64,000 nt of DNA from Promethearchaeati archaeon SRVP18_Atabeyarchaeia-1 (GCA_037308085.1 CP147779.1:1952001-2016000), one strand, 5' to 3'; shown: positions 13,901 to 44,841, counted from the first letter of the stretch. A program made the numbers and translations. The notes: a model not told the origin generated them from the letters alone.

Positions 13901-14088
13901 GTAAACGGCGTGATGCTTCGCATCCTTAAAAGAACTCATGAAAACGCGGAGGTTTGCCACATCGTGGTAAACCTCTAATGAACCCAAAAGATGTCTGCAT
14001 AGTTGTTACGTGGCGCCAAAAAGACTTGGAGTTTCATGGTCTGAATGGTCAAAAATAGTTAAAAGGCGCGCGCACCTTCTTAGGAACA

Positions 14089-17453: not shown

Positions 17454-18049
17454 ATGCCTGAAAGACTTTACACTCCAAGAGAAACCTGTATTCTCCTAGG
17501 CGTGCATCCTAGGACAGTTCAGAAGTGGGACAAAGAGGGGAAAATAAGGGTTGCCAGGACACCGGGTAGAAGAAGAAGGATACCAGAATCAGAGATAAGG
17601 ACGCTACAAGGCGAAACGGGATCAGGGTCTCGATCGGGTACGCTAGGGTGTCGTCACGAGATCAGTCGGACGACCTGGAACACGGGGTAGAGTATACAAA
17701 GTCTAAAGGCGCAAGCAAAGCGATAAGGGACATGGACAGCAGGCCCAATGAGAAGAGGAGAGGCTACACAAAACTAGGAAAAGTGCTTTCTAACGAGGTG
17801 GGGAAGGTCACAGTGACACACGCAGACAGGCTCACAAGATTCGGATTCGAAACATTAGAGCAGGTGTTTCAAGCACATGGCGCCGAAATCGATGTGCTGA
17901 ACGAGGCTAACCTGAAGACGCCGCAACAGGAACTGGTGGAAGCCCTTATTGCGATAATATCGTGCTTCTCAGGCAAACCCTAGGGTCTCAGGAGCCGCAA
18001 GTACAAGGAGGTTGTTGAAAGCGCTAAGAACCTATTCACTCAGTCATAA
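17454..18049 (+). pseudogene. tnpA: IS607 serine-recombinase transposase, disrupted
   Basis: MerR-like HTH (LLGVHPRTVQKWDKEGKI...TPGRRRR), then a frameshift near 17620 into GYARVSS...DRLTRFGF; premature TAG at 17981-17983. Confidence 0.85.
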
Positions 18050-19286
18050 CCAAGGCGAAGCACTCAGCGGCCTAATGGCTGCCTACAATAACATTCTCAA
18101 CGCCATGCTGCAGTGCACCTGGAGGACGACAGAGTGGAGGAAGCACCAGATCAAGGGCAAGAAGCAGCACAGGCTCTACCCTATCTACAGGAAGGACAAC
18201 GCCTTCAGACGGGAGTTGAGAGACAGGTGCCTGGAAGAGTGGTGCTATGCCGCGCACTGGGTTGACTCCGCCTTGAAGACCGCCTTCAGCATCATGGCTT
18301 CCTGGAAGAGGAACTATGACAAGGGTGAGAGGAAGCGGACGTGCCCACATGCGGGGAGGCTCTTCCTGCGGGCCAAGCAGACCCTCCTCAAGCTTGAAGG
18401 CGAGAAGCTGAGGGTCACCATGAAGCCGCATGAGTTCGTTTACATCGACTTGTCCAGGCGCTACTTCAAGCTGCCTGACAGCGTGTCCTCCGCGGGCATA
18501 GGTGAACCCATCATCACGCGCGACAGGATACACTTGCCCATCCATGTTCCAGAAGAGCAGGAGAAGAGGCTGGCTGAGAGGGTGGCGTGGGACTCGAATA
18601 TGCTTAGCATGGATGGGTACAGCCCTGAGACTGGCTGGGTGAAGATTGATACGAGGAGGCTCGCCTCCGTCCACATTTCGTCCTTCGAGAAGAGGCGCAG
18701 CGTGCAGAGGAAGGCCTCCAAGTCGAAGCGAGCGAAGAGAACTCTCACAAAATACCGGAGGAGGGAGAGGCACCGCGCCAGGAAGCACCAGGTGGAAATA
18801 GCGAGAGTGATGCGATCCCTATCAGACGAAAACGGCTTCGAGGAGCTGCGCAAGGAGAGGCTCTACTCCAAGTCGAGGGTGTGGAACAGGCGGGTGGCGA
18901 GGACGGACTGGCGCGGAATAAGGAGGCTCGCAGGAGGCGTTGAGGTGCCTCCGCAGTTCACTTCGAAGACGTGCTCCAGATGCGGGTGCGTAAACAAAGA
19001 CCTAAGAGGAGGAGTAGCGGTCTTCGAGTGCAAGAACTGTGGGCTGCGGATTGATAGGCAGCTCAACGCAGCCATCAACCTCTACCTGAGGATGGAGGGC
19101 GTTCCCCACGAGGAGAAGCGGTGGGATGCAAGCATCCTGCCTTCCTTAGTGGGTGGGTACGCCCTGACGGGGGCGGAGCGGAGGGGTGCCGATGAACTCG
19201 TGAGGCGCCTACATGATGCGGTGAAGCCCCAGATCTACGTGGCATACGACAGGTACGCTGACGCATACCTACCTACGCCTACATAG
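18012..19286 (+). CDS. tnpB: IS607-associated TnpB (RuvC-III DRQ variant)
   Basis: AWDSN, GFEEL, CSRCG..CKNCG, IDRQLNAAIN. Confidence 0.85.
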   Translation: MLKALRTYSLSHNQGEALSGLMAAYNNILNAMLQCTWRTTEWRKHQIKGKKQHRLYPIYRKDNAFRRELRDRCLEEWCYAAHWVDSALKTAFSIMASWKRNYDKGERKRTCPHAGRLFLRAKQTLLKLEGEKLRVTMKPHEFVYIDLSRRYFKLPDSVSSAGIGEPIITRDRIHLPIHVPEEQEKRLAERVAWDSNMLSMDGYSPETGWVKIDTRRLASVHISSFEKRRSVQRKASKSKRAKRTLTKYRRRERHRARKHQVEIARVMRSLSDENGFEELRKERLYSKSRVWNRRVARTDWRGIRRLAGGVEVPPQFTSKTCSRCGCVNKDLRGGVAVFECKNCGLRIDRQLNAAINLYLRMEGVPHEEKRWDASILPSLVGGYALTGAERRGADELVRRLHDAVKPQIYVAYDRYADAYLPTPT

Positions 19287-24415: not shown

Positions 24416-27202
24416 ATGACTAATGATGGAACTGTTTCGAAGAGGTTGTCATCATATGATTTCTCGAATGTGACCAGCAGTATTCTCAATCTTCCCCCTG
24501 TTCTGTCTGAAGACCAGGGAGAAGCCGCGCTGTCGAAGTCCAGATACACTAGAGTAATCGCGGGCGCAGGGGCTGGAAAAACAGAAACGTTGGCTAGACG
24601 GATAGCCTGCCTACTCTTGGTAGAAGGAGTCGAACCGAGACGCGTCGTTGCCTTCACTTTCACCGAGAAAGCCGCCCGGAGCATGAAAAGTCGAATCTAT
24701 CACACGGTGGAGAAACTCGCTGGGTCCGGGGCCACTGCAAATCTCGGCGAAATGTATATTGGAACGATCCACGGGTATGCCAAACGAATACTAGAAGATC
24801 ACTTCGGATATGGTAACTATGGCGTTCTGGACGAGGGCAAAGAAGTTGCATTCCTCATGAGGCATGGATGGAACATACATTCACACCTATACGCAGGTAA
24901 CTATGCGGAGAGTTGTCGGATTTTCCTGCGAACGGTAAACATGGTCTGGGACGAGATGCTTGACGAAGGGCAAGTTGAGCAAAGAGCGCCGCCTTTCTTC
25001 AGGAGGATGAAGCGCTATGAGGATCTACTCAAGGTCCACAGACAGCTCACTTTTGGCAGAATGATCCATGAAGCGGTATTGAACCTGAGAAGCAACCCAG
25101 ACAAACTTGGACATGTTAGGCATGTCATCATAGACGAATACCAAGACATAAACAGAGCCCAATGGGAACTCATAAACCTGGTAGGTCAAAACAGTTCAGT
25201 ATTCATTGTGGGAGACCCAAGGCAGAGCATCTATCAGTGGAGAGGATCTGATGAGGAGTTCTTTGAGAAATTCGCTAAGGATTTCCCAAAGGTGAAAACC
25301 GTAACTCTCACGGAAAATCGAAGGAGCGCCAAGAGAATCGTGAGGAACGCCAATTGCTTTGCAGATAGTTTTGAGAAAAGAGCATATGAACATATGGAGC
25401 CAACAAGAAAGGATGACGGGTTCATCGGATTAGCGAGCCTTGAGACCCCTGACGACGAGGCGAAATGGATTGCAGACCAGATAGAGGACTTGATAAAGAA
25501 AAAAAGCCTGAAGTTCTCAGACATAGGTGTTCTGACGAGAAGCGTCAGCACCTCAGCAGGGCCGCTTATTCACGAACTAAAGAAGCGGAAAGTGCCCTAC
25601 ATCGTGGGGGGCAAGGTCGGTCTCTTCAAAAGAGATGAAGCACGCGCGCTTGGGATGATTTTCTCTTGGTTCTGGGAGGACGGGTTTTGGACTGACGATC
25701 CATACAGAAGAGATGAGAGCATATCTGGAAATGCGCTTTTGAGTGCAGCGCTGAAGTGCTGGGATTCCGCGCATCAGCATGGACACCCCACCAGCGCAGA
25801 AATCAAGTTGAGACGAATCAAAGGAGATCTGAACTCTGAGAAGTCCTTCTACCGAAACTTCACCAAGATCTACTATGACATCCTCAACGCGCTTGGATAT
25901 GAAAAGTTGGATTACGCGAACACAAATGATGCAACCGTCATGGCAAATCTTGGTCGATTTAACGTTCTACTGACAGACTATGAATTCGCAAATCGGATCG
26001 GGGGAAGAAGACCTGAATGGGCTCACGACCTGAAAGGGCTATTCTGGTTCATCAACAGCTACGCTCTACTCGCTTATGAGGAACAGCCTTCGGATGACAT
26101 ACGGGGAGTGGATGCAGTCCAAATCATGACTATTCACCAAGCGAAAGGTCTTGAGTGGCCGATAGTCTTCTTGTTTGCGAACGTAACGAGGAGATTCCCA
26201 CCCAGCCGCATGGGAAGACCTCAGGAGTGGTGTGACGTACCGAGAGAAATGTTTGATGCGAAGAGGTATGAGGGCGGTCTCGAAGATGAAAGAAGGCTCT
26301 TTTACGTTGCAGTAACGAGATCAAAAGATGCCCTAGTAATCAGCCACTTCAGGAGAATAAGCAACAACATAAGCAGAAGCATGCTCATCGACAGTCTCGA
26401 CAAGGACGCCCTGACGGAACTAAGTGACAAACAGAGACTCCCTGAACTTGCCATTCACGCAAATTCACAGCCAGACGAAATCCAGACTTTCACCGCTGAA
26501 GAGGTCATCACTTTCAGCATATGCCCGCACATGTACCTCTTAAGAGATATCTGGGGATACCAACCAGAACTCAGGCAGGCAATAGGATTCGGTAATGGTC
26601 TCCATTATTGCCTCCGAAGAGCAGGCGAACTTATCAAGAACGAAGGCTACAGCCCAATAGAAGCAGCTGAAAAAGCAGTCAAGGAAGACTTTCATATGCC
26701 TTTCGTCGGAGGCGAAGTACTCGAAAACTTTAGAAAAAGCGCGGGAAAGATGCTCCGCAGATTCGCAGAGAAATACGGCGACGATCTCAAGCGGATCGAG
26801 GAAGTAGAATACAGAATCGAGTATCCAATAAAGAGCCCTACAAATGCAGCGACGATTATGGGCAAGGTGGATGTGATTCTGAGAGATGGGGGTTCCATGG
26901 AGGTTAGAGACTACAAGACCTCCGCGAAAGTTAGGACATCCGAAGAGATCTCTACTCAGGTCACCTTATACGCCGCTGGTCTCAAGAGCGTGGGCAGACC
27001 TGTAACAAGCGGATCTGTTGCCTACCTAAAGGAAGGAGACGTGAAGACGGTTGATGTTAGCGACCCTGCCCTAAGTAACGCAAAGGGGGAGGCTGGCAGG
27101 ACCATTGAGAGCATCATGAAGCGGCAATTCGCGCCTGCTCCCGGAAAGAACTGCAGTCGATGCGATCAAGCCCCAATATGCAGATGGCGGTCTAGTCACT
27201 AA
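24416..27202 (+). CDS. UvrD/PcrA-like SF1 helicase fused to PD-(D/E)XK nuclease with putative Fe-S Cys (AddA/AdnAB-like)
   Basis: AGAGAGKT, IDEYQD, GDPRQSIY, TIHQAKGLE, ERRLFYVAVTR; C-terminal CPH...GKVD...DYKT...CSRCDQAPIC. Confidence 0.92.
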   Translation: MTNDGTVSKRLSSYDFSNVTSSILNLPPVLSEDQGEAALSKSRYTRVIAGAGAGKTETLARRIACLLLVEGVEPRRVVAFTFTEKAARSMKSRIYHTVEKLAGSGATANLGEMYIGTIHGYAKRILEDHFGYGNYGVLDEGKEVAFLMRHGWNIHSHLYAGNYAESCRIFLRTVNMVWDEMLDEGQVEQRAPPFFRRMKRYEDLLKVHRQLTFGRMIHEAVLNLRSNPDKLGHVRHVIIDEYQDINRAQWELINLVGQNSSVFIVGDPRQSIYQWRGSDEEFFEKFAKDFPKVKTVTLTENRRSAKRIVRNANCFADSFEKRAYEHMEPTRKDDGFIGLASLETPDDEAKWIADQIEDLIKKKSLKFSDIGVLTRSVSTSAGPLIHELKKRKVPYIVGGKVGLFKRDEARALGMIFSWFWEDGFWTDDPYRRDESISGNALLSAALKCWDSAHQHGHPTSAEIKLRRIKGDLNSEKSFYRNFTKIYYDILNALGYEKLDYANTNDATVMANLGRFNVLLTDYEFANRIGGRRPEWAHDLKGLFWFINSYALLAYEEQPSDDIRGVDAVQIMTIHQAKGLEWPIVFLFANVTRRFPPSRMGRPQEWCDVPREMFDAKRYEGGLEDERRLFYVAVTRSKDALVISHFRRISNNISRSMLIDSLDKDALTELSDKQRLPELAIHANSQPDEIQTFTAEEVITFSICPHMYLLRDIWGYQPELRQAIGFGNGLHYCLRRAGELIKNEGYSPIEAAEKAVKEDFHMPFVGGEVLENFRKSAGKMLRRFAEKYGDDLKRIEEVEYRIEYPIKSPTNAATIMGKVDVILRDGGSMEVRDYKTSAKVRTSEEISTQVTLYAAGLKSVGRPVTSGSVAYLKEGDVKTVDVSDPALSNAKGEAGRTIESIMKRQFAPAPGKNCSRCDQAPICRWRSSH

Positions 27203-27266: not shown

Positions 27267-27659
27267 ATGACTGAGTCAGCGATTGAGAGGCTAAGACTGG
27301 ACATTATTTCAGCGCTTGGTGGGTGCTGTGTCAAGTGTGGCTTTCATGATCCAAGAGCACTCCAAATCGATCACATTAATGGTGGCGGCAGAAGAGAATA
27401 CTTACGCTTCGGGGGCAGTTCACACAGATACTTGAAGCACATAAGAGATCAGATTGAAAAAGGTTCCAAGAAATATCAGATCTTATGCGCCAACGACAAT
27501 ATGATCAAGCGAGAAGTGAACAAAAAATGTGAAGGCGCGGGTCGTAGAGCTTCAGCAACTCGCAAGCGCAATCTCGAGAGGCACAGAGATGCAGGTCTAA
27601 AAGCGGCAGACACAAGAATACGCAACCTGGAGAGAACTGGAGAACAAAATGAGGCATAG
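27267..27659 (+). CDS. Small HNH-like endonuclease
   Basis: CVKCG...LQIDHING...ILCANDN; basic repeated C-terminal tail. Confidence 0.7.
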   Translation: MTESAIERLRLDIISALGGCCVKCGFHDPRALQIDHINGGGRREYLRFGGSSHRYLKHIRDQIEKGSKKYQILCANDNMIKREVNKKCEGAGRRASATRKRNLERHRDAGLKAADTRIRNLERTGEQNEA

Positions 27660-27867: not shown

Positions 27868-28770
27868 CTATCTGGGCTTGCGGATATTCTTCACCTTGTC
27901 TTGAAGCCCAGCTCTCAAATGCTTTGCGTCATCCCTAAGAATCGTCTCGAAGTTTGCTTTGTCTCCGAAGAGTGAGGATTGATCAATATTCAGTTTTTTC
28001 TTAACTACGTCCAGAAGTTCCAGGTCAATCTCGTATCCTACGCATCTTCTGCCCAGTTCGAGGGCCACCTTCAAGGTCGTTCCCGAGCCCATAAAGGGGT
28101 CCAAAACAACCTCGTTCTTGTAGGAGAAGAGTTTGATTAACCTACGCGGGATCTCGTCTGGGTAAGCTGCTATCCCCTTCTCCAATCGGTTGCTGATGGG
28201 GAGCACATTCGTGATATTCCAGACGCTCAGATACCACTTGCCTTTCTGATAGGCCTCGAGATCGATCTTCGATTCCTCCTTGGCCTCGCTTGGGATCTTA
28301 TCGTAGTCGAAGTCTCCATTCTGGAAGATAAGAATCGACTCTTGGAGGTTGTCCGGGTAGTAATACATGGGATAAGGATGCTGCAGCAAGACCCCGCTTC
28401 TTCTGCTTATCCTGATATAGCCTTCAGGCTTAACCCAAGTAATCCTGTCTCTATACTTAAATCCCTCTTCGACGAATATCTTTGTTATGTCCGCAACCAC
28501 GGGGAACTTCTTGCCATCTATCAACGTATCGTCAACAACGAAAGCACCAATTCTCCCCTCAGCAAGCACCCTCTCAAGTTCCTCGGCCATTTTGCGGATA
28601 ATGCCCAGAAACTCGTCGTAGCTCTTGAAGAGGTCGGGGTAGTCAAAGGGAGCATTGAAGTAAGGCGGAGAAGTGACAACTAGATGTACGCTCTTGTCTT
28701 CTAGTTCCTGCATGTTTTGGCAGTCGCCAAAGACTATCTTGTTTATCCATTTGCCAGCCATTCCAGACAT
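27868..28770 (-). CDS. Beta-class DNA methyltransferase (SPPY; probably N4-cytosine)
   Basis: VVTSPPY precedes VLDPFMGSGTT. Confidence 0.9.
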   Translation of the reverse strand: MSGMAGKWINKIVFGDCQNMQELEDKSVHLVVTSPPYFNAPFDYPDLFKSYDEFLGIIRKMAEELERVLAEGRIGAFVVDDTLIDGKKFPVVADITKIFVEEGFKYRDRITWVKPEGYIRISRRSGVLLQHPYPMYYYPDNLQESILIFQNGDFDYDKIPSEAKEESKIDLEAYQKGKWYLSVWNITNVLPISNRLEKGIAAYPDEIPRRLIKLFSYKNEVVLDPFMGSGTTLKVALELGRRCVGYEIDLELLDVVKKKLNIDQSSLFGDKANFETILRDDAKHLRAGLQDKVKNIRKPR

Positions 28771-28934
28771 TCTCTCCTCTCAGCTAACCGTCATGGTGAT
28801 GGACATTACATTGTGATTATTAGCTTTGTAGGCTTTTAACTTTCCATCTAGGGCCGTCTGGCGTCAAAATCGCGTAATCATGCAGGAAAAATACTGCATC
28901 TGTCTGGGCAGCAGGTCCGCGAAGGTCCGAATCG

Positions 28935-29873
28935 CTATGGCGTCGAGTAGACTTCTACGACGGCGCGACCGACCGTAGTGAAGGTTCTGGCCGGAACCAC
29001 AAAATAGTTCTCGTACCTGTCATCCACTAGTACTATTCCTTTCGCCTTGCTCGGTTTCCCGCGGAGGCTGGTGGTCATCTTTTCTTGGGCGATCTTCAAC
29101 GCAATCTGTGGTCTTCGCACTTCGAACCCTTGTTGAGCAGTTGTATGGATGAAGCCAAGCTTCAGGATTGGGTTCATCTTCTCAAGATACGGAGGCTGAT
29201 TCCTGAACATAAGAGATGGAATCGTACCGGCAACACCGTTTGACAGCAGGAAGTCCCGTGCATAGACGAATTCCCCTATACTGAATTTGTACGAGTTAAT
29301 GGGAACCCTGACGTAGAACATCTGCTCTCTCTGTGCCTGCTTTGACTCACTCAGGAAGGGGATGCCTTCGAAGTCCTTTTCTGGCAGAGAAAGGACATTC
29401 CCCAATCGGGAAAGCAAATCTCTGCAGTCGCCTATGGCAAAGACAGGAATGCACCAGTTTGAGTAGAGCCTGCCAAATGCAGCCATTGTCGAATACTCAA
29501 GATGATATTGCTCCTGACCATCGACTTGAGGGCAAATCCGGAACTCGAGACTGTCATCATCTATCAAAGAAACCTTCACACGAGGCTTCTCTGATACTAT
29601 TATAGGTTCCGTCTCTCTATCAGTGGCCTGCCATCCGAGCGCTTCAACCGTCTTTCCAAAGTAGCGGGGGCTGATCACATACTTCCTTCTTCTCTCCTGT
29701 TCTCTGGTAGTGCTCTCGCAGTTATCGGAATAGATTATCGGCATTGTTTTCCTTTCAAAGCCACCCTTTCCGAAGCCCATTTCCTTGAGATGAGTATAAA
29801 GATCATCATCCCAAGCGAAGTATATCTGAAGCGTGTCCAAAACATAGGAACCGATATGAACTGAAGCCATCAA
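28935..29873 (-). CDS. Hypothetical protein upstream of the MTase (possible cognate restriction/effector protein)
   Basis: 312-aa ORF with GGAGG SD, co-oriented with the MTase; no motif recognised. Confidence 0.7.
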   Translation of the reverse strand: MMASVHIGSYVLDTLQIYFAWDDDLYTHLKEMGFGKGGFERKTMPIIYSDNCESTTREQERRRKYVISPRYFGKTVEALGWQATDRETEPIIVSEKPRVKVSLIDDDSLEFRICPQVDGQEQYHLEYSTMAAFGRLYSNWCIPVFAIGDCRDLLSRLGNVLSLPEKDFEGIPFLSESKQAQREQMFYVRVPINSYKFSIGEFVYARDFLLSNGVAGTIPSLMFRNQPPYLEKMNPILKLGFIHTTAQQGFEVRRPQIALKIAQEKMTTSLRGKPSKAKGIVLVDDRYENYFVVPARTFTTVGRAVVEVYSTP

Positions 29874-30086
29874 CCATCATCCTCCGATCCTGGACTCCGC
29901 CAGACAATGAAGGAGATAAAAGCTATAGTTCTTTCGCATGCGCCTGCGTCCCTGAATTATCCGAACTCAGTGACCCAGAATAAGGCATGAGGACCTCTTT
30001 CTAAGCTCTCGCAGATTTGGGAATATCGCAAATACCCCGCAAAGTATAAAATCGGCAACATGCATCTAGTGGCTGGGGACACGACC

Positions 30087-31121
30087 ATGGTTGGGGAGAT
30101 TGGAGATCTAAACCGACTTGTACTGCATCCTTCTTTCAACGAGACTATCGATGAGATAAATAAGCTTGGCATCTGCATACCGAGTCATCCGATCGCGGAA
30201 GAGATGGATTTTAACTCATACCTATTTCCTCCCCAAAACGGCAAGCTAGTCACGAATATTGAAGAGCCAAGAAGCTTCGACCTGGACGCAGGAGGAGGAC
30301 AGGATCTGCTGAAGGAAGGGATTCCGATCTGTGCATATGATGAGTCAATGAGTAAGTTCTCCAGCTTGGAGGGAACCGCTTTTGTTGTGTCTCATTCACT
30401 GGTGATCCACCGGAAAGATGACTACGTCCCATCTTGCTACCTTACGCTCAACTTCTATACTCGCTCAAAGACCTTTACGGAGAACTCAAAACTTCTAAAA
30501 TACTCTGACAATCCGGAGCAGAGCTCTAAACTCGACTATGTTAGAGACAGAACAGAATTGCTGCTAAGAAGTGCGCCAAGCAATTCGATAGTGTTTATCG
30601 ATGGCGTCCTAATCGGGGGACAGCTTAGCAGTTACACCATCAGAATGAACGAGGAGCTGCTCAGAAGGAACATAATTCCTATCTTCTTCGTAAAGAACAG
30701 TGCAAGCAATCTGGTCACCGATCACATTGATGGACTTGTGGGAAGATACAATTCTGATATGCACTGGGCATATACGTCGCTGAAGCCTGGGCAGAGGACA
30801 AGCTTCTTCCAGTACCAGGATGCGAGGAATACTGCCAATGCAAAGCTATTCTGTTATCTCAAGGCTTTCGAGATTAGTCCGCAGAGAGTCGAGTTCCACG
30901 TAAGTACCTTTAAGAAGTATGGAAAAAAGATGAGTGCTCTCATGGACCTGGCATACTATCTCATGCTTGTTCAGGGTGACCTATCCAATCCGCAAATAAG
31001 GCCAATTGCGGTTGCGGAGAAGTATGCTAGGGAAACCCTGAGGTTAGTCGACCTTGACAAACTAATGAGGAGACTGGGAATAACATCTACCGTAAATCAA
31101 GAAAGGTTTGGATGGAGTTAA
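30087..31121 (+). CDS. nurA: NurA-like (RNase H fold) nuclease
   Basis: CAYDES, FIDG, FVKNS, and C-terminal RPIAVAEKYA (canonical ..L..AH..A has E for H). Confidence 0.72.
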   Translation: MVGEIGDLNRLVLHPSFNETIDEINKLGICIPSHPIAEEMDFNSYLFPPQNGKLVTNIEEPRSFDLDAGGGQDLLKEGIPICAYDESMSKFSSLEGTAFVVSHSLVIHRKDDYVPSCYLTLNFYTRSKTFTENSKLLKYSDNPEQSSKLDYVRDRTELLLRSAPSNSIVFIDGVLIGGQLSSYTIRMNEELLRRNIIPIFFVKNSASNLVTDHIDGLVGRYNSDMHWAYTSLKPGQRTSFFQYQDARNTANAKLFCYLKAFEISPQRVEFHVSTFKKYGKKMSALMDLAYYLMLVQGDLSNPQIRPIAVAEKYARETLRLVDLDKLMRRLGITSTVNQERFGWS

Positions 31122-31123
31122 GA

Positions 31124-32686
31124 ATGTCATGGATTGTAATAACTGAAGACAAAGGCAAGATTATGCTTGTCTCCAAGAGCAATCAGGATGACGCGGTCAA
31201 GGGGATACTGCACAGGGGATCATATCTAACCGTTGAAGATGGAGAAAAGAAATTCATCCTGAGGGTTGAGGACAGTTCTCAATTCAACCCATACTCGCCT
31301 TCCCCCATGGTAGTTGACATGGATCTGTCCCCACTCCTGCAAGATCAGAAATGTCAAAATGTAGTCTATGCGACCAAGATAGTAGAACATCCAGATCGTG
31401 ACGACGGAAGAAGCAGTTTCATAAGGCCGCAATTGCTGGCAAGAGTATCCAATCAGTCCGAAATCGACGCCGCCTTCGGTAACAATGAAGGAATTCCTGT
31501 CTTCCCAGCGACGACATTGGCAAGAAGCTGCAAACATCTGCGCGACGACAAAGGTAAACTCGTTCAAGTGAAGATACCGGAGGACGTGTTCTTCTACCAG
31601 ATGCTAGTGACAGGGAGTACGGGCTCAGGCAAGACAGTTGCAATGAAATACATGGCACAGTACTTTGTGGAAGAACTGAAACTGAACGGACGCGGGCCCG
31701 GAGCAGTACTTGCAGTGAACGTGAAAGAAGAGGACATGCTAACCATGGATAGGCCCAGTGAGTCTGGTAGCTCAGAAGTTATGAACGAATGGTCCGATCT
31801 TCATGTCAGTCCCCACGGAGTTGAGACTTTTAGAACCTATTATCCTGGCAACTTGACTCCGCGATACTCGAAGGCAGTTGACCTCGGTAAGTGTGAGAAG
31901 ATAACTCTTGAGACAGATCACATTGATCCCGAAACTCTTACCGGATTGATACAGAACATTACTGAATTGGGTGCCGATCAGCTACCCGCGATCTTTAGAT
32001 ATTGGAAGGAGAAAATCATGAAGCGCGGTGAGAAGCTGGGTGACTTCATCCGCTACTTCGCAGACCCAAACAAGAACAGGGACTACACTGCACTGAACAG
32101 TCGTGGCGAAGAACTACCCATAAGAATGCATCCTGGAACCTTTCAGAGTGTTCTGAATGCTCTGTCTAACGCAGCAGAGTACTTCGATGTCCGGGACGCA
32201 AAAGAACTGAACGCCAAAGATATCCTCGAGCCTGGCAAGATGTCGGTGATTGACGTAACTGCTAAGCATGGATTCGGATTCGGCGCAGTTCTCTTGAGAG
32301 ACCTGCTTGACAAGATCTTCGAAGCAAAAAGTCGCAGAGAAACCGAGGTCCCAGCCCTGATAATCATCGACGAGGTGCACGAATTCTACGGATCTGCGAG
32401 AAGCCGCGAAGCCTTGTATACCTTGGACGCCATCTGCAGAAAGGGTCGCAGCCTGGAAATTGGTGTGATATTTGCTTCCCAGAACCCAGAGGACATGCCA
32501 AAAGGTATCGTCAATGTTGTGAACACGAAAATCGGTTTCAAGTCAGATTCTCTTCGGGGAATCGATCCTGAGGCATTGAAGCCTGGCTACGGGATCGCAA
32601 AAGTTCACGGCTTGAGTCAGCTGAATTTCGTGAAGTTTCCACTGTCTTTGGGTGGTGTAAGTGATGGAAGAAGAGCGAATAGATGA
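31124..32686 (+). CDS. herA: HerA/FtsK-family ATPase with N-terminal HAS-barrel-like domain
   Basis: VTGSTGSGKT, IIIDEVH, RKGRS (Arg finger), ASQNP. Confidence 0.85.
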   Translation: MSWIVITEDKGKIMLVSKSNQDDAVKGILHRGSYLTVEDGEKKFILRVEDSSQFNPYSPSPMVVDMDLSPLLQDQKCQNVVYATKIVEHPDRDDGRSSFIRPQLLARVSNQSEIDAAFGNNEGIPVFPATTLARSCKHLRDDKGKLVQVKIPEDVFFYQMLVTGSTGSGKTVAMKYMAQYFVEELKLNGRGPGAVLAVNVKEEDMLTMDRPSESGSSEVMNEWSDLHVSPHGVETFRTYYPGNLTPRYSKAVDLGKCEKITLETDHIDPETLTGLIQNITELGADQLPAIFRYWKEKIMKRGEKLGDFIRYFADPNKNRDYTALNSRGEELPIRMHPGTFQSVLNALSNAAEYFDVRDAKELNAKDILEPGKMSVIDVTAKHGFGFGAVLLRDLLDKIFEAKSRRETEVPALIIIDEVHEFYGSARSREALYTLDAICRKGRSLEIGVIFASQNPEDMPKGIVNVVNTKIGFKSDSLRGIDPEALKPGYGIAKVHGLSQLNFVKFPLSLGGVSDGRRANR

Positions 32687-32792
32687 GGACATGGAAACCC
32701 TCCTGAAGAAACTCCTAACTGAGAAGGAATTCGAGGTTCTGAGAGACATTGTTCGGTCTCGCGGCGATTTCAAAGTTGAGGAGGGGGAGTAG
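32664..32792 (+). CDS. 42-aa acidic micropeptide between HerA and the SMC-like ATPase
   Basis: MEEERIDEDMETLLKKLLTEKEFEVLRDIVRSRGDFKVEEGE*; GGTGGTG SD; overlaps the herA stop. Confidence 0.6.
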   Translation: MEEERIDEDMETLLKKLLTEKEFEVLRDIVRSRGDFKVEEGE

Positions 32793-34856
32793 ACGTTTCA
32801 GATCAAGTACACGTACCAAAAAGGTGGCCCGCAATATTCGTGCGCATACCCAAACATCAAAGACTACCACAATAACATATTCATAGTCAAGGGAAGGAAC
32901 GATCAAGGAAAAAGCACTCTGATGCAGATGGTTGCCTTAGGTCTATATGGTCTAGACTCAGATGACATTGACAGCACACTCAAAGACAAGATGCGACGAC
33001 TCATATCGAGTGACACTGATATGTGTGAATTCGAATTCATAATCCAGAGTAGAGATGGCAACACCAGATTGGAGTCTAGCCTAAAGGATCATAAGATCTC
33101 GTTGTCTGAAAACGGCAAGGTGAAACCTCCGACCTACGTTCAAGATCACTTCAAAATACTTTTCGATGTCCCCGAAGAACCAACAAAGAAACTGATCTCT
33201 GCTTTAAGGTCAATAGATTATCACTTGGGCCAGTACGAGCTCTACGTTCAAAGATACAGAGGATGTATCAAGGAATCCCTCGACAAGATCGATGACTACG
33301 TGGATAAGGAGAACAGGCTTCAAGAGGAAGCGCAAGCGCTTGCCCTTAAGAACACTGAGCTTGGGAATCTTCAGAAAAGACTGGAAAGCGTGCAGGAAGA
33401 CTATTCTAAGATGGAGAAGGCATATGTGGTGGGCCTGCATAAGAGACTTTTCTACGATTTAACGGAGTTGGACAATCAGAAAGGGGAGCTAAACAAGCGC
33501 ATAAAACAGCTAAAGGAAGCTGGAGCCGGTGGAGGCAACAGGAAGTATGTCGAACGTTTGAAGATGTTTGGCGAGGTGCTGTCGACCCTTAAGCACTCGG
33601 TCAATACTTCGTCGTCTATCAATGATTTTCAGGATGAGGATGATAAAAAGCGCAACCTGTCCGTGGCCAAGGAAATCAATGACGTCTTTATGCCAAGAAA
33701 GATCAGCGATGAAAAGCAGAAGGGATGGAGGACTTTCTACGTTGACACCCTTAGAACCTTGGAGTCCAACCCATTGCAGAAGAAGAAGATGCCTGAGGAG
33801 GAACAGATAGAGCTGCTAGATCGGTTAATAGAGCTGCTCAAGGACTTTGTCAATATGAGCACAGAAATACCAGGAACTAACGGCAAGAATGTTAACGAGT
33901 TCTTGAAGGAGCTCGAATCAAGCAGGGGAAAATCGAAAAGCAGGATATCAGAGAAAGTCAGTCTGAATGAAGCGATAAAAGCCTGCAAGGAGATAATCGC
34001 AAACCTTGATACGTTTGCTGAAGTGACAGCGCAGATACCAAAAGAAGTTGCTGGAGAGGATGACCTTGATCAAGCCGATGAGGATCTTAAGAACGCAAAG
34101 AGAAAGTACGATAATAAGCTGAAGGAGTTCACCAACCTTCTTGGGCAGTATAATGCCATCCCGGAAAGAGAGAAGGTCGACCTACTGTCGACCAAAGAGC
34201 TTAGTGTTCATGATTACGAAAGCAAGAGAAAAGAGAAAACTGACCTGGATAGCAAGGTCAGGAACTGTCTCATAACTATAGAAAGCAAAAGGCAACTTGT
34301 TAATGATCTTTCAAAATCCAAGAAGCCTTCTGGCAGCCTCGACAAAGAAAAGCTAAAATCTGCATATGCTGCAACTGACGAGATTATGCGGAAAATCCAC
34401 TTGTGGAAGGACTACATAAGTTCGTTGGATCTTGAAAAGATGAGTTTCAAGAAGAGCCCTGATCTCGAAGCAGTCAAATTCTATGGCGCCCTTGGCGACT
34501 ACTTCGCCGATGTTCTAAAGGTCGTGTACTTCGAGAACAGGGGGTGGAATGTGCGGCAAATAGACTTCATGAATCGCCGTTACATTGTTGAAGCTAGAAG
34601 CCCGATAAGTTTCATCGATATCGGGACTGGGCACACTGCCCTAAACGCTCTACTAGCGAGAATGAAACAGGATTATGGCGGAAAGAAAAAGATCCTTCTC
34701 TTCGATGAGATAGGAATAATGGACGCTGGTAACATGGGCAGGCTACTGGAAGAAATAGGGAGACAGGTCAAAAGCAATGAAGTTCTATTCGCGTTGCTGA
34801 GTCAGGTCGATAATGAGCTCAACAGGCCGGAATTAGTACCTGTTAAACTCGAGTAG
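32793..34856 (+). CDS. SMC/Rad50-like ABC ATPase with long coiled coil (inferred ACG start)
   Basis: Walker A GRNDQGKST lies in frame upstream of the first ATG (32922). Signature-like IGTGH and Walker B LLFDEIG near the C-terminus; coiled-coil middle; no CxxC hook seen. Confidence 0.8.
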   Translation, partial: TFQIKYTYQKGGPQYSCAYPNIKDYHNNIFIVKGRNDQGKSTLMQMVALGLYGLDSDDIDSTLKDKMRRLISSDTDMCEFEFIIQSRDGNTRLESSLKDHKISLSENGKVKPPTYVQDHFKILFDVPEEPTKKLISALRSIDYHLGQYELYVQRYRGCIKESLDKIDDYVDKENRLQEEAQALALKNTELGNLQKRLESVQEDYSKMEKAYVVGLHKRLFYDLTELDNQKGELNKRIKQLKEAGAGGGNRKYVERLKMFGEVLSTLKHSVNTSSSINDFQDEDDKKRNLSVAKEINDVFMPRKISDEKQKGWRTFYVDTLRTLESNPLQKKKMPEEEQIELLDRLIELLKDFVNMSTEIPGTNGKNVNEFLKELESSRGKSKSRISEKVSLNEAIKACKEIIANLDTFAEVTAQIPKEVAGEDDLDQADEDLKNAKRKYDNKLKEFTNLLGQYNAIPEREKVDLLSTKELSVHDYESKRKEKTDLDSKVRNCLITIESKRQLVNDLSKSKKPSGSLDKEKLKSAYAATDEIMRKIHLWKDYISSLDLEKMSFKKSPDLEAVKFYGALGDYFADVLKVVYFENRGWNVRQIDFMNRRYIVEARSPISFIDIGTGHTALNALLARMKQDYGGKKKILLFDEIGIMDAGNMGRLLEEIGRQVKSNEVLFALLSQVDNELNRPELVPVKLE

Positions 34857-35762
34857 GTGATAACCATGAACGATTCAGGCATTTTGAGCGCGAATCAGAC
34901 CAGGGTGCTCGGGAAGTTGGTCTACAAAGGGAAAAACAGACCCAAGTCTAATCGTAAACTTGCCATTGGTCTGATCAAGAAAAAAAAGAAGAACCAGCAA
35001 GATTTCTACAAGTCTCTCTCCTTCCGTCAGAACGAAGCTAATCTACCCCAACATGAAATCGAAGAACTAGTAGCTAAGAACCTATTGAAGTTCATAAGCA
35101 GGAAAGACAAGCTACTCACGGTTACCTTGAAAGCGATGCTAGTTCTCGACTACGGAATCACAGACCTCTCGGGCAATATGGACGAGATGCTGAATGATTT
35201 TAACGAGGTCTTCTTCGAAGGAGTCATCAAGCTCTCCGATGAACCGCTAGAGGCCAGAGAGAAGGCGATTATATTGGGGCTGCTTGGCTTGGGGACAGTA
35301 TCAGAACAGTATTCTCTAAAGCCGGACAAAGAGAATCAAGAGGAACTCGGAAAATGCATTGATGACTTTGCCGTGAGCTTCATCAAGGAACTTGGCCCTG
35401 AATATGATGATGGAACCATCAAAGACCTGTGGCCGGGGGACGTAGTCGGCGAGGAGCCTGTGCTCGCACGTATGCGGAGAACAGATACTGTACAGGCCCG
35501 CACTGAAGGGGTATATAGGAAGAAGGAGGGCAGGCACTACCTGGACATACTGGCAGACGAGAAAATAGACGAGGCCAAACTGACATACCTATTTGAGAGG
35601 TTTTTCGACAAGAGACCCCTATCCTTTGAGGAAAAGAAGAAACTTGTCAAGGCCCTGGACGGCATCCAGGAACACGCGATTAGGCTAATCAGGAGCAACC
35701 CCCCATTCGATATGCTAGAGATTAGAAGACAGATCAGGCGCATCATAGAAAGTAAGCTCTGA
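34857..35762 (+). CDS. Hypothetical protein, possible N-terminal winged helix; last gene of the NurA-HerA-SMC operon
   Basis: Abuts the SMC stop; EIEELVAKNLL...LTVTLKA wHTH-like pattern. Confidence 0.7.
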   Translation: MITMNDSGILSANQTRVLGKLVYKGKNRPKSNRKLAIGLIKKKKKNQQDFYKSLSFRQNEANLPQHEIEELVAKNLLKFISRKDKLLTVTLKAMLVLDYGITDLSGNMDEMLNDFNEVFFEGVIKLSDEPLEAREKAIILGLLGLGTVSEQYSLKPDKENQEELGKCIDDFAVSFIKELGPEYDDGTIKDLWPGDVVGEEPVLARMRRTDTVQARTEGVYRKKEGRHYLDILADEKIDEAKLTYLFERFFDKRPLSFEEKKKLVKALDGIQEHAIRLIRSNPPFDMLEIRRQIRRIIESKL

Positions 35763-35872: not shown

Positions 35873-36358
35873 ATGAGTGAAGCATCTACTGAAAAAACCA
35901 AGATCAGCTCGTCCGAGTTGCTGACGGCATTCATAATAGTCATCATGCTCTTGGGGCTTACCACGTATGAGGTCGCCAGAGCGAATTCAGCTATGGCTGA
36001 ACTGAGCGGCTTCATTAGCGCTGCAATTCTCGTAGTTGCTGGAATCATTCCACTAATTGGCGACATTTATCGCCGCCCATATATCTATTTCCTGATTTTG
36101 CCTGGTCCATATGTTGGCTCGTGGTGTCTGTCATGGAATTTTTGGTCTTTGTTCGAAATCTCTCCATTCTTAGCGGGAGTCTTAGCATCGGCTATCTCGT
36201 TGAGCCTGATTACTTCCGTTCATAGATTTTCGCGCAGACGAGGCTCCGTCAGCTCCGCCTTTGCATTCTCGGGCAAAGACGAGATTAAGCTGTCAAGCGT
36301 CCTCTTATTGTTCACGGGGTTATTTGCATTGGGAGAAGCTCGGAGGCTTAACACTTGA
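35873..36358 (+). CDS. Hypothetical integral membrane protein
   Basis: About five hydrophobic segments. Confidence 0.65.
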   Translation: MSEASTEKTKISSSELLTAFIIVIMLLGLTTYEVARANSAMAELSGFISAAILVVAGIIPLIGDIYRRPYIYFLILPGPYVGSWCLSWNFWSLFEISPFLAGVLASAISLSLITSVHRFSRRRGSVSSAFAFSGKDEIKLSSVLLLFTGLFALGEARRLNT

Positions 36359-36418: not shown

Positions 36419-36660
36419 ATCATCGTAACTCCCTGGAAGACAGATTTACGCCATTCATACGCTCCAGAAATTGCGCTAGTAAGTAGAGATTGTTCCCTCA
36501 GAGGGATCCAACTTGAATGGGTCCTCGAAGTACTCCACTGGAGTCTTTCCAGTCGACAGTTTGTGAGTTGCCGTTTTTGGGTAAGTTTTAAAAGGTTCAG
36601 AAAACCTCATAATATACGATTATCATCTTGGTTTTGGCGTTCCGTTTGTGGGGTGTGAGT

Positions 36661-38103
36661 ATGGTTTCGGGTCTTGTTATTGCGAAGGGCGAGACTGAGC
36701 TGGCTCTGCTGCCTTCGATGGCTAACAGGCATGGTCTGGTTGCAGGAGCCACGGGAACTGGAAAGACGGTGACCCTGCAGAAGATTGCTGAGAAGTTGAG
36801 TGGTATAGGAGTTCCAGTCTTCATGGCTGATGTAAAGGGAGACCTTTCAGGGATCAGCCAGGCAGGCGGCAGTAATCCGAAAGTTGAGGACAGGATAAAG
36901 ACTCTGCAAATCAAGGGTTTCACGTACGAGAGTTATCCTGTTGTTTTCTGGGACGTGTTTGGGCAGAGCGGCCATCCGATAAGGACCACAATAAGCGAAA
37001 TGGGGCCGCTGCTCATTAGCAGACTGCTGGGCCTCAATGATGTTCAGGAAGGCGTGCTCGCGACCGTCTTCAAGATTGCTGATGATAACGGATTGTTGCT
37101 CCTCGACTTGAAAGACCTCAGGTCTATGCTGCAAAATGTCGGGGACAATGCCAAGGTTTACACTACACAGTATGGGAACATTCCAACGGCAACCGTAGGC
37201 ACAATCCAGAGAGGGTTGCTTGAGCTTGAGCAGCAGGGCGGGGACAAGTTCTTCGGAGAGCCTGCTTTCGGTATAAACGATTTGATAAGGGTTGAGAACG
37301 GGAAAGGCGTTGTGAACGTACTGGCAGCAGACAAGCTCATAACCTCTCCAAAGGTCTACTCGACCTTCCTCCTCTATCTGCTGTCAGAGCTTTTCGAGCA
37401 GCTGCCGGAAATAGGAGATGTGGAAAAGCCAAAGCTTGTCTTCTTTTTTGATGAGGCGCACCTGCTTTTCAATGACGCGCCGAAGGCCCTGATTGAAAAA
37501 GTACAGCAGGTTGCCAGACTCATCAGGTCAAAGGGGGTTGGCGTCTACTTCATAAGCCAGAACCCCATGGACGTGCCTGAAATCGTTCTGGGGCAGTTGG
37601 GAAACAGGGTGCAGCACGCGCTCAGGGCATTCACGCCAATTGACCAGAAAGCGGTCTCTTCTGCAGCAAAGACCTTCCGGCCTAACCCGAAGATAAAGAT
37701 TGAGCAGGCAATCACTGAACTGGGTGTTGGGGAAGCGCTTGTCTCCTTCCTCGATGAGAAGGGCCAGCCAGGAATTGTCCAAAGGGCATTTGTTATCCCG
37801 CCAGGGAGTAGGATAGGCCCGATTACGCCGCAGGAGAGATCTGCCATCACTTCAAGGTCTGCTATGGCTGGGAAATACGAAAAGGCAATTGACAGGGAAT
37901 CCGCTTATGAGGTGCTACAGAGAAAGGCCCAGCAGGCTGCCCAGCAGGCTGCGAAGCCCGCAGCAAAGGCCGCTCCAAAAGGAAGGCAACAAAAGAGCGT
38001 TATGGATGCCGTGACCAAGAGCTTCGCTACCAGCGCGAGCCGGCAGGTTGGGAACCAGATAGTCCGAGGGCTACTTGGCTCCATTTTTGGGAAGAAGAGA
38101 TAA
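36661..38103 (+). CDS. DUF853/YjgR-family HerA-like ATPase
   Basis: [52 protein letters not shown]. Confidence 0.92.
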
Positions 38104-43391: not shown

Positions 43392-44841
43392 GAAAGGGTT
43401 CGGAACTGTTCGGATGGACTGTATAAATACGTGTAATCACATGTAAGACAATATGGAAGGAGAACTACGGGATGGAGAGCTTCACCCGGGCAGCCTGCGG
43501 ATCCTGGCGGTCGCACGTGAAGAGGCAGCCACCCACCGGGGGCACCACAGGTGGAAGGCGAGGGAAGGAGAAAAGAGAACCATCACGGTCGGATACGAGC
43601 CCTCCGCAGCAACACTCAGATACCTTGAGGACATGAGGGACGCGCTGACGGGCGCTGTCGCCCACGCATACGCCCTTGCCAAGACTGGTGGCCTGCTCCC
43701 GAGCCCAGTGGCGCTGAGGAGGAGGGTGAAGCCCTGGTTCGACGCCCACTACGACTACGCGAGGCACCACGTCAACCCTGTGTGCAGGACTGCTGTATCA
43801 CTGCTCAGGTCGTACAGGAAGAGGCACCACGAGCTCGCAATGCCCCGGGTCAGGAGGCTAGCCATGAGGATCGACTCCGAACTCTTCCGCGTCCTGGAGA
43901 AAGATGATGGAACCGTGACTGTGAGGGTGACGCTGAAGCCCTTCACCTACGAGACCATCACCTTCACTCCAAGCCACAGGAAGTGGAGCGAGTACAGCAG
44001 GGGAGCAGTGAGCGAACTACTGCTGACTGACAGGAGGCTCTGCGTAACCTTCATCGTGGGGCCTGATGGCGACGGCGGAAAGCCTCTCGGCGGGAGACTC
44101 GCAGGCTCAGACCTCAACTTCCGAAGCATAGACTCCACAGCGTTCAGAGGTGGCAAGCTGGAGCCACCCTGCACTGAGCCTCTCAACAAGATAGTGCAGG
44201 TTCAGAACGATTTCTCAAGGAGGCGAAGGAGACTCCAGCTACACATCAGGAACCCAGAGAAGAGAGCAGCGAAGCTCGCTGAGACAGGGGGCAGGCAGAG
44301 GAACAGGGTCCGGGACGAGCTCCACAAGCTCTCAACCAGGATCATCGGGGAGAACCCTGGCACCTCATTCATCTTCGAGGACTTGAGGAACATCCGGGGA
44401 AAGGGGGAAAGGAAGAGGAAGAAGGCGAGCAGGAAGCTGAGGACGTACCTGAGCCGATGGCCCTACAGGATGTTCCAGAGCATGGTCGAGTACAAGAGCC
44501 GATGCAGGACGATTTACGTGAGCCCGAGGGGGACCTCCACGGAGTGTCCCGTCTGCGGTGGAAAGTTAGAGCACCCAGCTTGGGCCATATCGAGATGCAA
44601 AACCTGTGGCGTGGACTACCAGCGGGATAGGCTCGCCTCGCTGGCGATACTCCGCCGTGGTCTGCGCCTTTGCCGCTACCCGTTTACGGTGAGTGCGGGC
44701 GCCTCTTGGCAGCAGATGAGGGATGAATACCTGTACGCCCCCGGAGAGCCGAGGCCGGGAGAACAGGCTGGACCAGATGCCGCCAACGCTCCGAATAGAA
44801 ACGCGGAAAACTTCCATGGTTTTCCACATTTCTAGAAACGG
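43391..44841 (+). mobile_element. IS607-derived tnpB-only element
   Basis: GG at both junctions (TAT|GGAAAG and GAAACGG); truncated genes on both flanks; vestigial TnpA HTH at the ORF start. Confidence 0.6.
43453..44835 (+). CDS. tnpB: TnpB nuclease (triad intact) with N-terminal degenerate IS607-TnpA-like HTH
   Basis: GSDLN, FIFEDL, CPVCG..CKTCG, QRDRLAS. Confidence 0.85.
   Translation: MEGELRDGELHPGSLRILAVAREEAATHRGHHRWKAREGEKRTITVGYEPSAATLRYLEDMRDALTGAVAHAYALAKTGGLLPSPVALRRRVKPWFDAHYDYARHHVNPVCRTAVSLLRSYRKRHHELAMPRVRRLAMRIDSELFRVLEKDDGTVTVRVTLKPFTYETITFTPSHRKWSEYSRGAVSELLLTDRRLCVTFIVGPDGDGGKPLGGRLAGSDLNFRSIDSTAFRGGKLEPPCTEPLNKIVQVQNDFSRRRRRLQLHIRNPEKRAAKLAETGGRQRNRVRDELHKLSTRIIGENPGTSFIFEDLRNIRGKGERKRKKASRKLRTYLSRWPYRMFQSMVEYKSRCRTIYVSPRGTSTECPVCGGKLEHPAWAISRCKTCGVDYQRDRLASLAILRRGLRLCRYPFTVSAGASWQQMRDEYLYAPGEPRPGEQAGPDAANAPNRNAENFHGFPHF

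Follow-up and report, generated by a model that had tools for sequence, protein, structure and literature searches.

A stretch of 64,000 nucleotides from the closed 2.81-Mb genome of Promethearchaeati archaeon SRVP18_Atabeyarchaeia-1 (C1:1952001–2016000; GCA_037308085.1, CP147779.1), hereafter called the window, carries five chained genes that encode a NurA-like nuclease, a HerA-like ATPase, a peptide of 42 amino acids (aa), a Rad50-like coiled-coil ABC ATPase and a 301-aa winged-helix protein. We propose that this set of genes, referred to as the cassette, is probably a hitherto undescribed anti-invader system made from DNA-repair parts. More specifically, we consider a mobile cassette that would destroy invading DNA from its ends and would work together with adjacent restriction-modification (R-M) genes, a reading to which we give about an even chance. 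All positions refer to the window unless they are prefixed by C1 or by a locus number (L008 etc.).

The five genes are located on the plus strand between 30060 and 35762 and, when the sequence and its open reading frames (ORFs) are read, leave no free intergenic space. The TAA of the nurA-like gene (30060–31121, 353 aa) overlaps the ATG of the herA-like gene (31112–32686, 524 aa) by 10 nt. The end of the latter in turn overlaps the ATG of the 42-codon ORF by 23 nt, and this ORF extends from ATG 32664 to TAG 32792. Directly after its TAG the frame of the ATPase opens (32793–34856, 687 codons), and the GTG start of the winged-helix gene (34857–35762) abuts the ATPase TAG. Altogether the cassette comprises ~5.7 kb, the neighboring methylase not included. 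A first-pass annotation, made from the sequence alone, had claimed five coupled genes in this region, among them a ~690-aa ABC ATPase with the motifs GRNDQGKST, IGTGH and LLFDE but no zinc hook and a 301-aa protein resembling a winged helix-turn-helix (HTH) protein. All five are present as described, and both of these assignments were borne out. Upstream, the cassette is bordered by a divergent intergenic region (29874–30059) in which a TATA-like box, GTATAAAA, can be read from the sequence at about 30045–30052. Since this box lies too close to the ATG at 30060, the true start of the nurA-like gene may be the second ATG at 30087, which would result in a protein of 344 aa; in the alignment, homologues begin at the position matching this second ATG.

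In scans of genome and metagenome contigs we found 31 cassette loci. They stem from Thermoplasmatota, an uncultured archaeon, Methanosarcinaceae, Methanoperedens, Bathyarchaeia, Jordarchaeum and one proteobacterial metagenome-assembled genome. Wherever the contig extends far enough the order NurA-like protein, HerA-like protein, peptide, ATPase and winged-helix protein is kept. According to pairwise identities the division into two clades is the same for all four large proteins: clade A comprises the window, L008, L009 and L011–L013, and clade B comprises L014 and L030–L040. The cassette therefore evolves as one unit, and the conservation of the gene neighborhood that the first-pass annotation had put up for testing is supported. 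It is at the same time rare: it occurs in 2 of 400 genomes of its own phylum and in 2 of 401 genomes of a sample of the class Bathyarchaeia, corresponding to a prevalence of ~0.5%. Neither the genome available for the same genus (94% complete) nor that of the same family (closed) was found to contain it. For a region of ~15.6 kb around the cassette (22.9–38.5 kb) we likewise obtained no DNA match in these two genomes, while the flanks at 20.3–22.6 kb and 38.6–39.9 kb do match both of them. We interpret the region as a strain-specific island with several putative nuclease and helicase genes, and the cassette as an accessory element whose patchy distribution points to horizontal acquisition and spread.

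The first protein matches the Pfam NurA family (PF09376) with an E-value of 8.9e-7 and 29.1 bits (cut-off 21), and 7 of 9 members of its family match the same profile, the best at 3.6e-12. The aligned homologues all share two acidic motifs without change, AYDES and IDGPLIGG, and VKNS and NSDxHW are also kept. The invariant residues D94/E95 and D181 sit in NurA-like motifs. Identity to the other NurA of the genome amounts to only 21%. We therefore class the protein as a divergent NurA nuclease whose catalytic motifs are predicted to be intact. Its neighbor shows a Walker A motif GSTGSGKT and a Walker B motif LIIIDE and matches Pfam HerA_C at 2.9e-7 (30 bits, cut-off 22). In addition, it is recognized by the PADLOC model HerA 'type III coevolved' (7.9e-16) and by several further HerA models of PADLOC and NCBIfam. 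Between loci it is 40–67% identical. No hydrophobic segment could be detected in the protein (maximum Kyte-Doolittle mean over 19 residues 1.18). Judged by these motifs and matches, it is a HerA/FtsK-family ATPase, presumably hexameric.

The 42-aa peptide is acidic (isoelectric point 4.5) and probably helical. We found its ORF preserved at 22 loci, where it shows the motif E-x-LLKKL-x(4)-[ED]-[LF]-x-[IVL]-L; identity between the window and other loci amounts to 40–51% (tblastn). At every locus the stop codon of the peptide abuts or overlaps the start of the ATPase, being located within 5 nt or overlapping. This arrangement suggests that the peptide gene is translationally coupled to both of its neighbors. 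The ATPase itself is characterized by the motifs GRNDQGKST, IGTGH and ILLFDE and by a coiled coil of ~430 residues. Its 687 residues contain no CxxC zinc hook; at the apex, where Rad50 has the hook, a conserved motif IPGTxGK is found instead (residues 359–365). We compared an AlphaFold model of the protein (predicted local distance difference test, pLDDT, 85) with known structures using Foldseek. The best match was Rad50 (7zr1, 6.8e-11), followed by MukB, Smc5/6 and the LmuB structures 9hqx, 9hqu and 9uxh at about 1e-6. Comparing the profile of the family with the PDB by sequence yielded coiled-coil noise only. On the strength of the model we assign the protein to the Rad50/SMC fold, as a predicted coiled-coil ABC ATPase without hook. 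Its family, one subgroup of which has a length of ~705 aa, counts 530 representatives at 50% clustering (among 1.84 billion).

The gene of the 301-aa protein is found at every locus whose contig reaches that far. In the AlphaFold model (pLDDT 87) residues 1–105 match winged helices of the MarR type with a Z-score of 5.8 (VIA-align). The rest of the protein is unmatched, and a Foldseek search with the model gave nothing below an E-value of 0.2. ESM Atlas returned only sub-threshold leads of the Crp/Fnr type, and the profile against PDB sequences only coiled-coil noise. Residues G198, E199, R208, T216, Y228 and F250 are invariant in the family. The protein is thus modeled as an N-terminal winged helix followed by a conserved C-terminal region. 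A kleisin identity was considered and rejected, the weak MukF and MukE rows in the Foldseek output not being evidence for it. In clade B a sixth gene of ~300 aa can follow directly after the winged-helix gene. Its resemblance to zf-PARP is weak (2e-4 to 7e-4), and the gene was seen in L015, L019, L031, L032, L034–L036, L038 and L039 (e.g. L034:12891–13796); the clade of the window is devoid of it. Zf-PARP domains are zinc fingers that sense DNA breaks.

Head-to-head with the cassette lies a DNA methyltransferase (MTase) gene on the minus strand (27868–28770). The predicted enzyme is of the beta class, with SPPY at residue 34 and FMGSG at residue 226, and matches Pfam PF01555 (N6_N4_Mtase) at 1e-42 and the PADLOC model MTase_II at 5.7e-74. 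Its partner gene (28935–29873, minus strand), divergent from the cassette, encodes a 312-aa protein that had been listed as an unknown component in the first-pass annotation. This label can be replaced: residues 6–210 match the PADLOC model REase_II (PDLC03542) at 9.5e-9, with no match in Pfam or NCBIfam, and the protein is probably a type II restriction endonuclease (REase). With the MTases at the clade-B loci L035 and L038 the enzyme of the window shares 73% and 64% identity, respectively. A homologue of the 312-aa protein (67% identical) adjoins the cassette of L038, where both genes recur as a pair. We regard them as a predicted ordinary type II R-M pair.

To what extent the cassette is linked to DNA methylation can be seen from the other loci. 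Sixteen loci have an upstream flank of 2.5 kb or more, and at 15 of these 16 a DNA MTase is found no farther than ~4 kb from the cassette. With about nine loci for MTases in its 2.8 Mb, this genome gives a base rate near 5%, and the link to a methyltransferase that had been suspected from the window is thereby established. The MTase and the 312-aa protein of the window are not conserved as orthologues at all loci. Pairwise identities rather separate four MTase subfamilies, each of which occurs with both cassette clades: D12-1 (clade A L011 and L012, clade B L030, L032 and L034; 51–55% identity between clades), D12-2 together with a PD-Lambda-5_A protein (L008 and L014; 44%), N6_N4-1 (the window in clade A, L035 and L038 in clade B; 73% and 64%) and N6_N4-2 (L008 and L009 in clade A, L039 in clade B; 41–44%). 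The R-M pair of the window is 64–73% identical to the clade-B pairs, whereas the core proteins there reach only 22–44%. Core proteins do not co-vary with the type of MTase. Recognizable nuclease partners accompany several of these MTases: at L035 a clear REase (1.4e-93) that differs from the 312-aa protein, and at L012 a nicking endonuclease nearby. In L008 (L008:1888–4142) and L014 (L014:3174–5494) a PD-Lambda-5_A homologue (3.8e-190) and a D12 methylase are present beside the cassette; here a named defence pair thus supplies the methylase.

NurA and HerA load at DNA ends and degrade DNA processively, and Rad50 recognizes DNA ends. Because these proteins, and likewise LmuB of the Lamassu defence system, act on DNA ends, we favor a mechanism in which ends are sensed and the DNA is then shredded. 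In such a mechanism the methyltransferase would mark host DNA. Double-strand ends on unmodified DNA would come either from cuts by its partner endonuclease, a part played in the window by the 312-aa protein, or from the free ends of a linear invader. The Rad50/LmuB-like ATPase together with the winged-helix protein and the 42-aa peptide as further subunits would recognize and clamp these ends. The ATPase complex would then recruit or license a HerA hexamer and a NurA dimer, which would translocate and digest both strands. End sensing would thus be carried over from Rad50 and LmuB, and the processive degradation that depends on ends from the HerA-NurA of archaea. The roles given here to the peptide and the winged-helix protein, like the role in defence itself, are assigned by analogy and are meant as a model.

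If this holds true, archaea, Asgard archaea included, would re-use the whole end-resection toolkit of Rad50-like protein, NurA and HerA as an immune weapon. Breaks made by restriction or the ends of viral DNA would be turned into full destruction of the invader in organisms without RecBCD, the enzyme responsible for DNA destruction after restriction in bacteria. The partners of SMC-type proteins would be joined by a micro-protein that is conserved and by a new family of winged-helix proteins. One could go further and postulate that archaea possess a novel type of immunity. Here an end sensor derived from Rad50, which would depend on the 42-aa protein as an obligatory subunit and have the winged-helix protein as partner, would license NurA-HerA to shred DNA after restriction, in a role similar to that of RecBCD. 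The dose of the sensor would be set by translational coupling, its own start codon (TTG or ACG) being weak. This extended version we put forward only tentatively. With its compact size the cassette makes heterologous expression directly feasible as a test.

Several observations weigh against an end-dependent anti-invader cassette. Seven loci carry a D12-1 MTase directly upstream and no recognizable nuclease, so that the 'cutter' is missing there; these loci with an orphan MTase limit our confidence in the model. We did not find the cassette on IMG/VR viral contigs or PLSDB plasmids, where the queries were limited to short patterns and a single distant member of the family; a trait that commonly marks defence genes is thereby missing. 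The Pfam score of the NurA-like protein is modest, and solved NurA structures were not reached by profile sequence search. Aligning the profile of its family with the single NurA sequence of the genome in hhalign was uninformative (4% probability). Finally, the ATPase gene of the window is without a canonical start codon, so that expression of this copy may be weak or its function lost.

The last point deserves attention, since decay of the cassette in this genome would mean that a change from ATG to ACG leaves a truncated ATPase devoid of the P-loop or no ATPase at all. In the window the start position is occupied by ACG (32793), in 22 other loci by ATG (~9) or TTG (~13). No ATG, GTG or TTG precedes the Walker A motif; the first such codon, an ATG at 32922, lies behind the P-loop. 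The annotation of NCBI, which presents the gene as intact, uses an ATA at 32877 (659 aa), by which 28 conserved N-terminal residues would be dropped. Rescue by read-through of the TAG or by pyrrolysine, fusing the peptide to the ATPase, was rejected: it is unlikely because TAG is the commonest stop codon of the genome and no PylS is encoded, and the two frames differ in most loci. Other loci degrade too, with the nurA-like gene split into two frames (L016:5884–6940) and a fragmented D12 methylase beside a second winged-helix paralogue (L017:12779–14365). The ACG stands exactly where 14 homologues (684–697 aa) begin with MF-x-I-x-Y. Against decay speaks that the 43 codons from there to the first ATG are free of frameshifts and stops, and that all family-invariant residues in this part are intact (Y6, G12, Y15, P20, I29, G34, N36, D37, G39, K40, T42). 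A GGAGG-like Shine-Dalgarno motif always precedes the ATPase start, in the window as elsewhere, the start is coupled to the stop of the peptide, and the use of weak TTG codons is habitual in this family. We therefore consider coupled re-initiation on a weak codon the most likely reading, and decay possible but on balance doubtful. In a further locus a stop codon interrupts the ATPase frame (L025:480–1962).

The loci with an orphan MTase could alternatively be explained if the core itself told methylated from unmethylated DNA, as is the case in type I and III R-M, BREX, DISARM and MADS. Such a self-contained system would need only an MTase, and nearby REases would be incidental. In L009, L011–L013, L032 and L034 an MTase on the same strand lies directly upstream, with no recognizable endonuclease partner. 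The D12-1 MTases, at 51–55% identity across clades, are more conserved than the core proteins, and a precedent exists in MADS, which joins an MTase producing N6-methyladenine with ATPase-nuclease modules (PMC13662399). A sensor reading methylation had also been part of the first-pass proposal. The evidence, however, argues against sequence-specific reading, because the core does not co-vary with the type of MTase: the winged-helix protein and the ATPase are 22–27% identical where the MTases share 53–73%, which is hard to square with a methyl reader of this kind. Furthermore, no known methyl-reading domain was detected in the core proteins using Pfam, PADLOC and NCBIfam, and NurA-HerA and Rad50-type ATPases are generally known to act on DNA ends. 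A self-contained system thus appears unlikely compared to end sensing with adjacent R-M. Since each of the four methylase subfamilies has been exchanged between clades A and B, the loci amount to a clean natural experiment on how modification and effector are matched.

We then asked whether the cassette represents a system that already has a name. PADLOC v2, Pfam and NCBIfam contain no named system matching it, PADLOC v2 recognizing only the R-M pair and the generic HerA models, and in the literature searched we found no description of this gene set. The statement of the first-pass annotation that the combination is not a named system could therefore be kept. Among the closest is Lamassu (LmuA-LmuB-LmuC; DdmABC of Vibrio cholerae), with which the cassette shares a short hook-less ATPase of similar size derived from SMC/Rad50, an HTH-type DNA-binding partner and a putative nuclease effector. 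Lamassu senses DNA ends, which LmuB binds together with its HTH-type partner LmuC, a protein too diverse for sequence tests (PMC12663957). The ATPase of the window matches the PADLOC model of LmuB weakly (4.7e-4) and over the coiled coil, and the fold match to LmuB (~1e-6) is weaker than that to Rad50. Distant members of the ATPase family match LmuB hidden Markov models at up to 4.8e-13. No cassette protein is matched by the PADLOC models of LmuA, of the LmuA C-terminal domain or of LmuC. In contrast to Lamassu, the effector of the cassette is a separate pair of NurA and HerA motor; the 301-aa partner follows the ATPase, with the 42-aa protein taking the position of LmuC before it; and linkage to a methylase is not a feature of Lamassu. 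The origin suggested here from the end-resection machinery would parallel the proposed origin of Lamassu from SbcCD.

The end-resection operon herA-mre11-rad50-nurA of archaea likewise encodes NurA, a HerA translocase and a Rad50-fold ATPase together. We therefore also considered the cassette as a spare module for double-strand break repair or recombination, an Mre11-less variant of this operon that travels on a mobile island and is found near methylases only by way of shared variable regions. All three enzymatic parts are homologous to the archaeal end-resection machine, and the top match of the ATPase in Foldseek is Rad50. Yet the genome already contains a canonical herA-mre11-rad50 cluster (C1:347.4–353.0 kb), as had to be asked from the outset, as well as two further nurA-herA pairs (about C1:778–781 kb and 2102–2105 kb). 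To these copies the HerA and NurA of the cassette are only 21–25% identical, which sets the cassette apart from the housekeeping genes. A gene with a Metallophos domain (Mre11) is found in the cassette at none of the loci, the Mre11 of the genome being encoded elsewhere. The cassette also differs from the repair operon by the missing zinc hook, a coiled coil of ~430 residues and the addition of a winged-helix protein and a micro-protein. Near-universal vertical inheritance, a trait of the repair operon, contrasts with a cassette that is horizontally spread, located beside methylases and rare in two large samples. The frequency of MTases next to the cassette is moreover far above the base rate. 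Taken as a repair module the cassette is therefore improbable. In front of one of the two further pairs (C1:2102100–2106300; L007 5159–9258, minus strand; 398 and 629 aa) lies a gene for 337 aa without Pfam match, and this pair may be another accessory NurA-HerA module.

Similar to MADS (methylation-associated defence system; mad1–mad8, Pseudomonas aeruginosa), the cassette is a multi-gene, methylase-linked set with ATPase and nuclease modules, whereas it has neither an OLD/Toprim module nor a kinase. The mandatory genes of MADS are mad6, mad7 and mad8 (bioRxiv 10.1101/2023.03.30.534895). The HerA-like protein matches the mad8 model at 6e-16, but the same model matches unrelated ABC ATPases and the match is a generic one to the P-loop. 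The MTase matches mad2 weakly (7.1e-13 compared to 5.7e-74 for MTase_II), and neither mad6, mad7 nor any other mad model matched the cassette. With only one mandatory gene matched, and that by an unspecific model, membership in MADS was rejected. In the Dnd and PbeABCD systems, as in the cassette, an ABC ATPase into which ~400 residues of coiled coil are inserted goes together with a small DNA-binding partner, and ATPases of the DndD/CxC type sit in modification-linked defence loci (PMC10853773). One distant member of the ATPase family matches PbeC (1.9e-6). The cassette, in contrast, is without CxC motif or zinc hook, without a ribbon-helix-helix partner of the DndE type and without genes for sulfur modification. 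For the ATPase of the window an identity as DndD or PbeC was rejected, as it gave no NCBIfam DndD match at E≤0.01 and no PADLOC match. Altogether these comparisons place the cassette, a real, conserved and horizontally spread unit, as a variant among the SMC/Rad50-type methylation-linked systems, for which a function in defence is suggested by analogy.

In the ICETh1 element of Thermus thermophilus the tdtA operon ('DNA secretion system') combines an R-M enzyme, a NurA-like protein, a HerA/FtsK-type ATPase and a methylase; the R-M enzyme, the NurA-like protein and TdtA are needed for DNA donation, and the operon is located on a mobile element (PMC7767461). A comparable module that cuts and pumps host DNA for donation or uptake would fit the joining of the same three functions and the position of the cassette on a horizontally acquired island beside a DUF853/HerA_C ATPase gene, but is the least probable of the alternatives, since TdtA is described as a membrane-associated protein serving donation while the HerA-like protein is without hydrophobic segment (the two being likened by description and not by sequence), since conjugation, integrase and pilus genes are not conserved beside the cassette, and since the Thermus operon is without Rad50-like ATPase, peptide and winged-helix protein.

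The neighborhood of the cassette contains further genes. Upstream of the cassette, beyond the MTase, a stand-alone fusion of a UvrD-type helicase with a Cas4-like PD-(D/E)XK domain is encoded (24416–27202, 928 aa), which is matched by the PADLOC models of GajB and DRT-helicase at 1e-50 to 1e-60. It is followed on the island by an HNH-like ORF of 130 aa (27267–27659) whose basic tail repeats RxRNLER twice. A UvrD-nuclease and an HNH gene had been described as flanking the cluster; both exist on its upstream side, but the gene after the cassette (35873–36358) is not an HNH gene: it has no HNH signature in Pfam and looks membrane-embedded. Downstream, 0.9 kb separate the cassette from the DUF853/HerA_C ATPase gene (36628–38103, Pfam 733 bits), a proximity that is not conserved elsewhere. 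At other loci the cassette is flanked by SIR2, Schlafen-type helicase and ParB-ASCH genes. Outside the island, three genes of the TnpB family (12773–13987, 18012–19286 and 43453–44835) are consistent with a highly mobile region around it.

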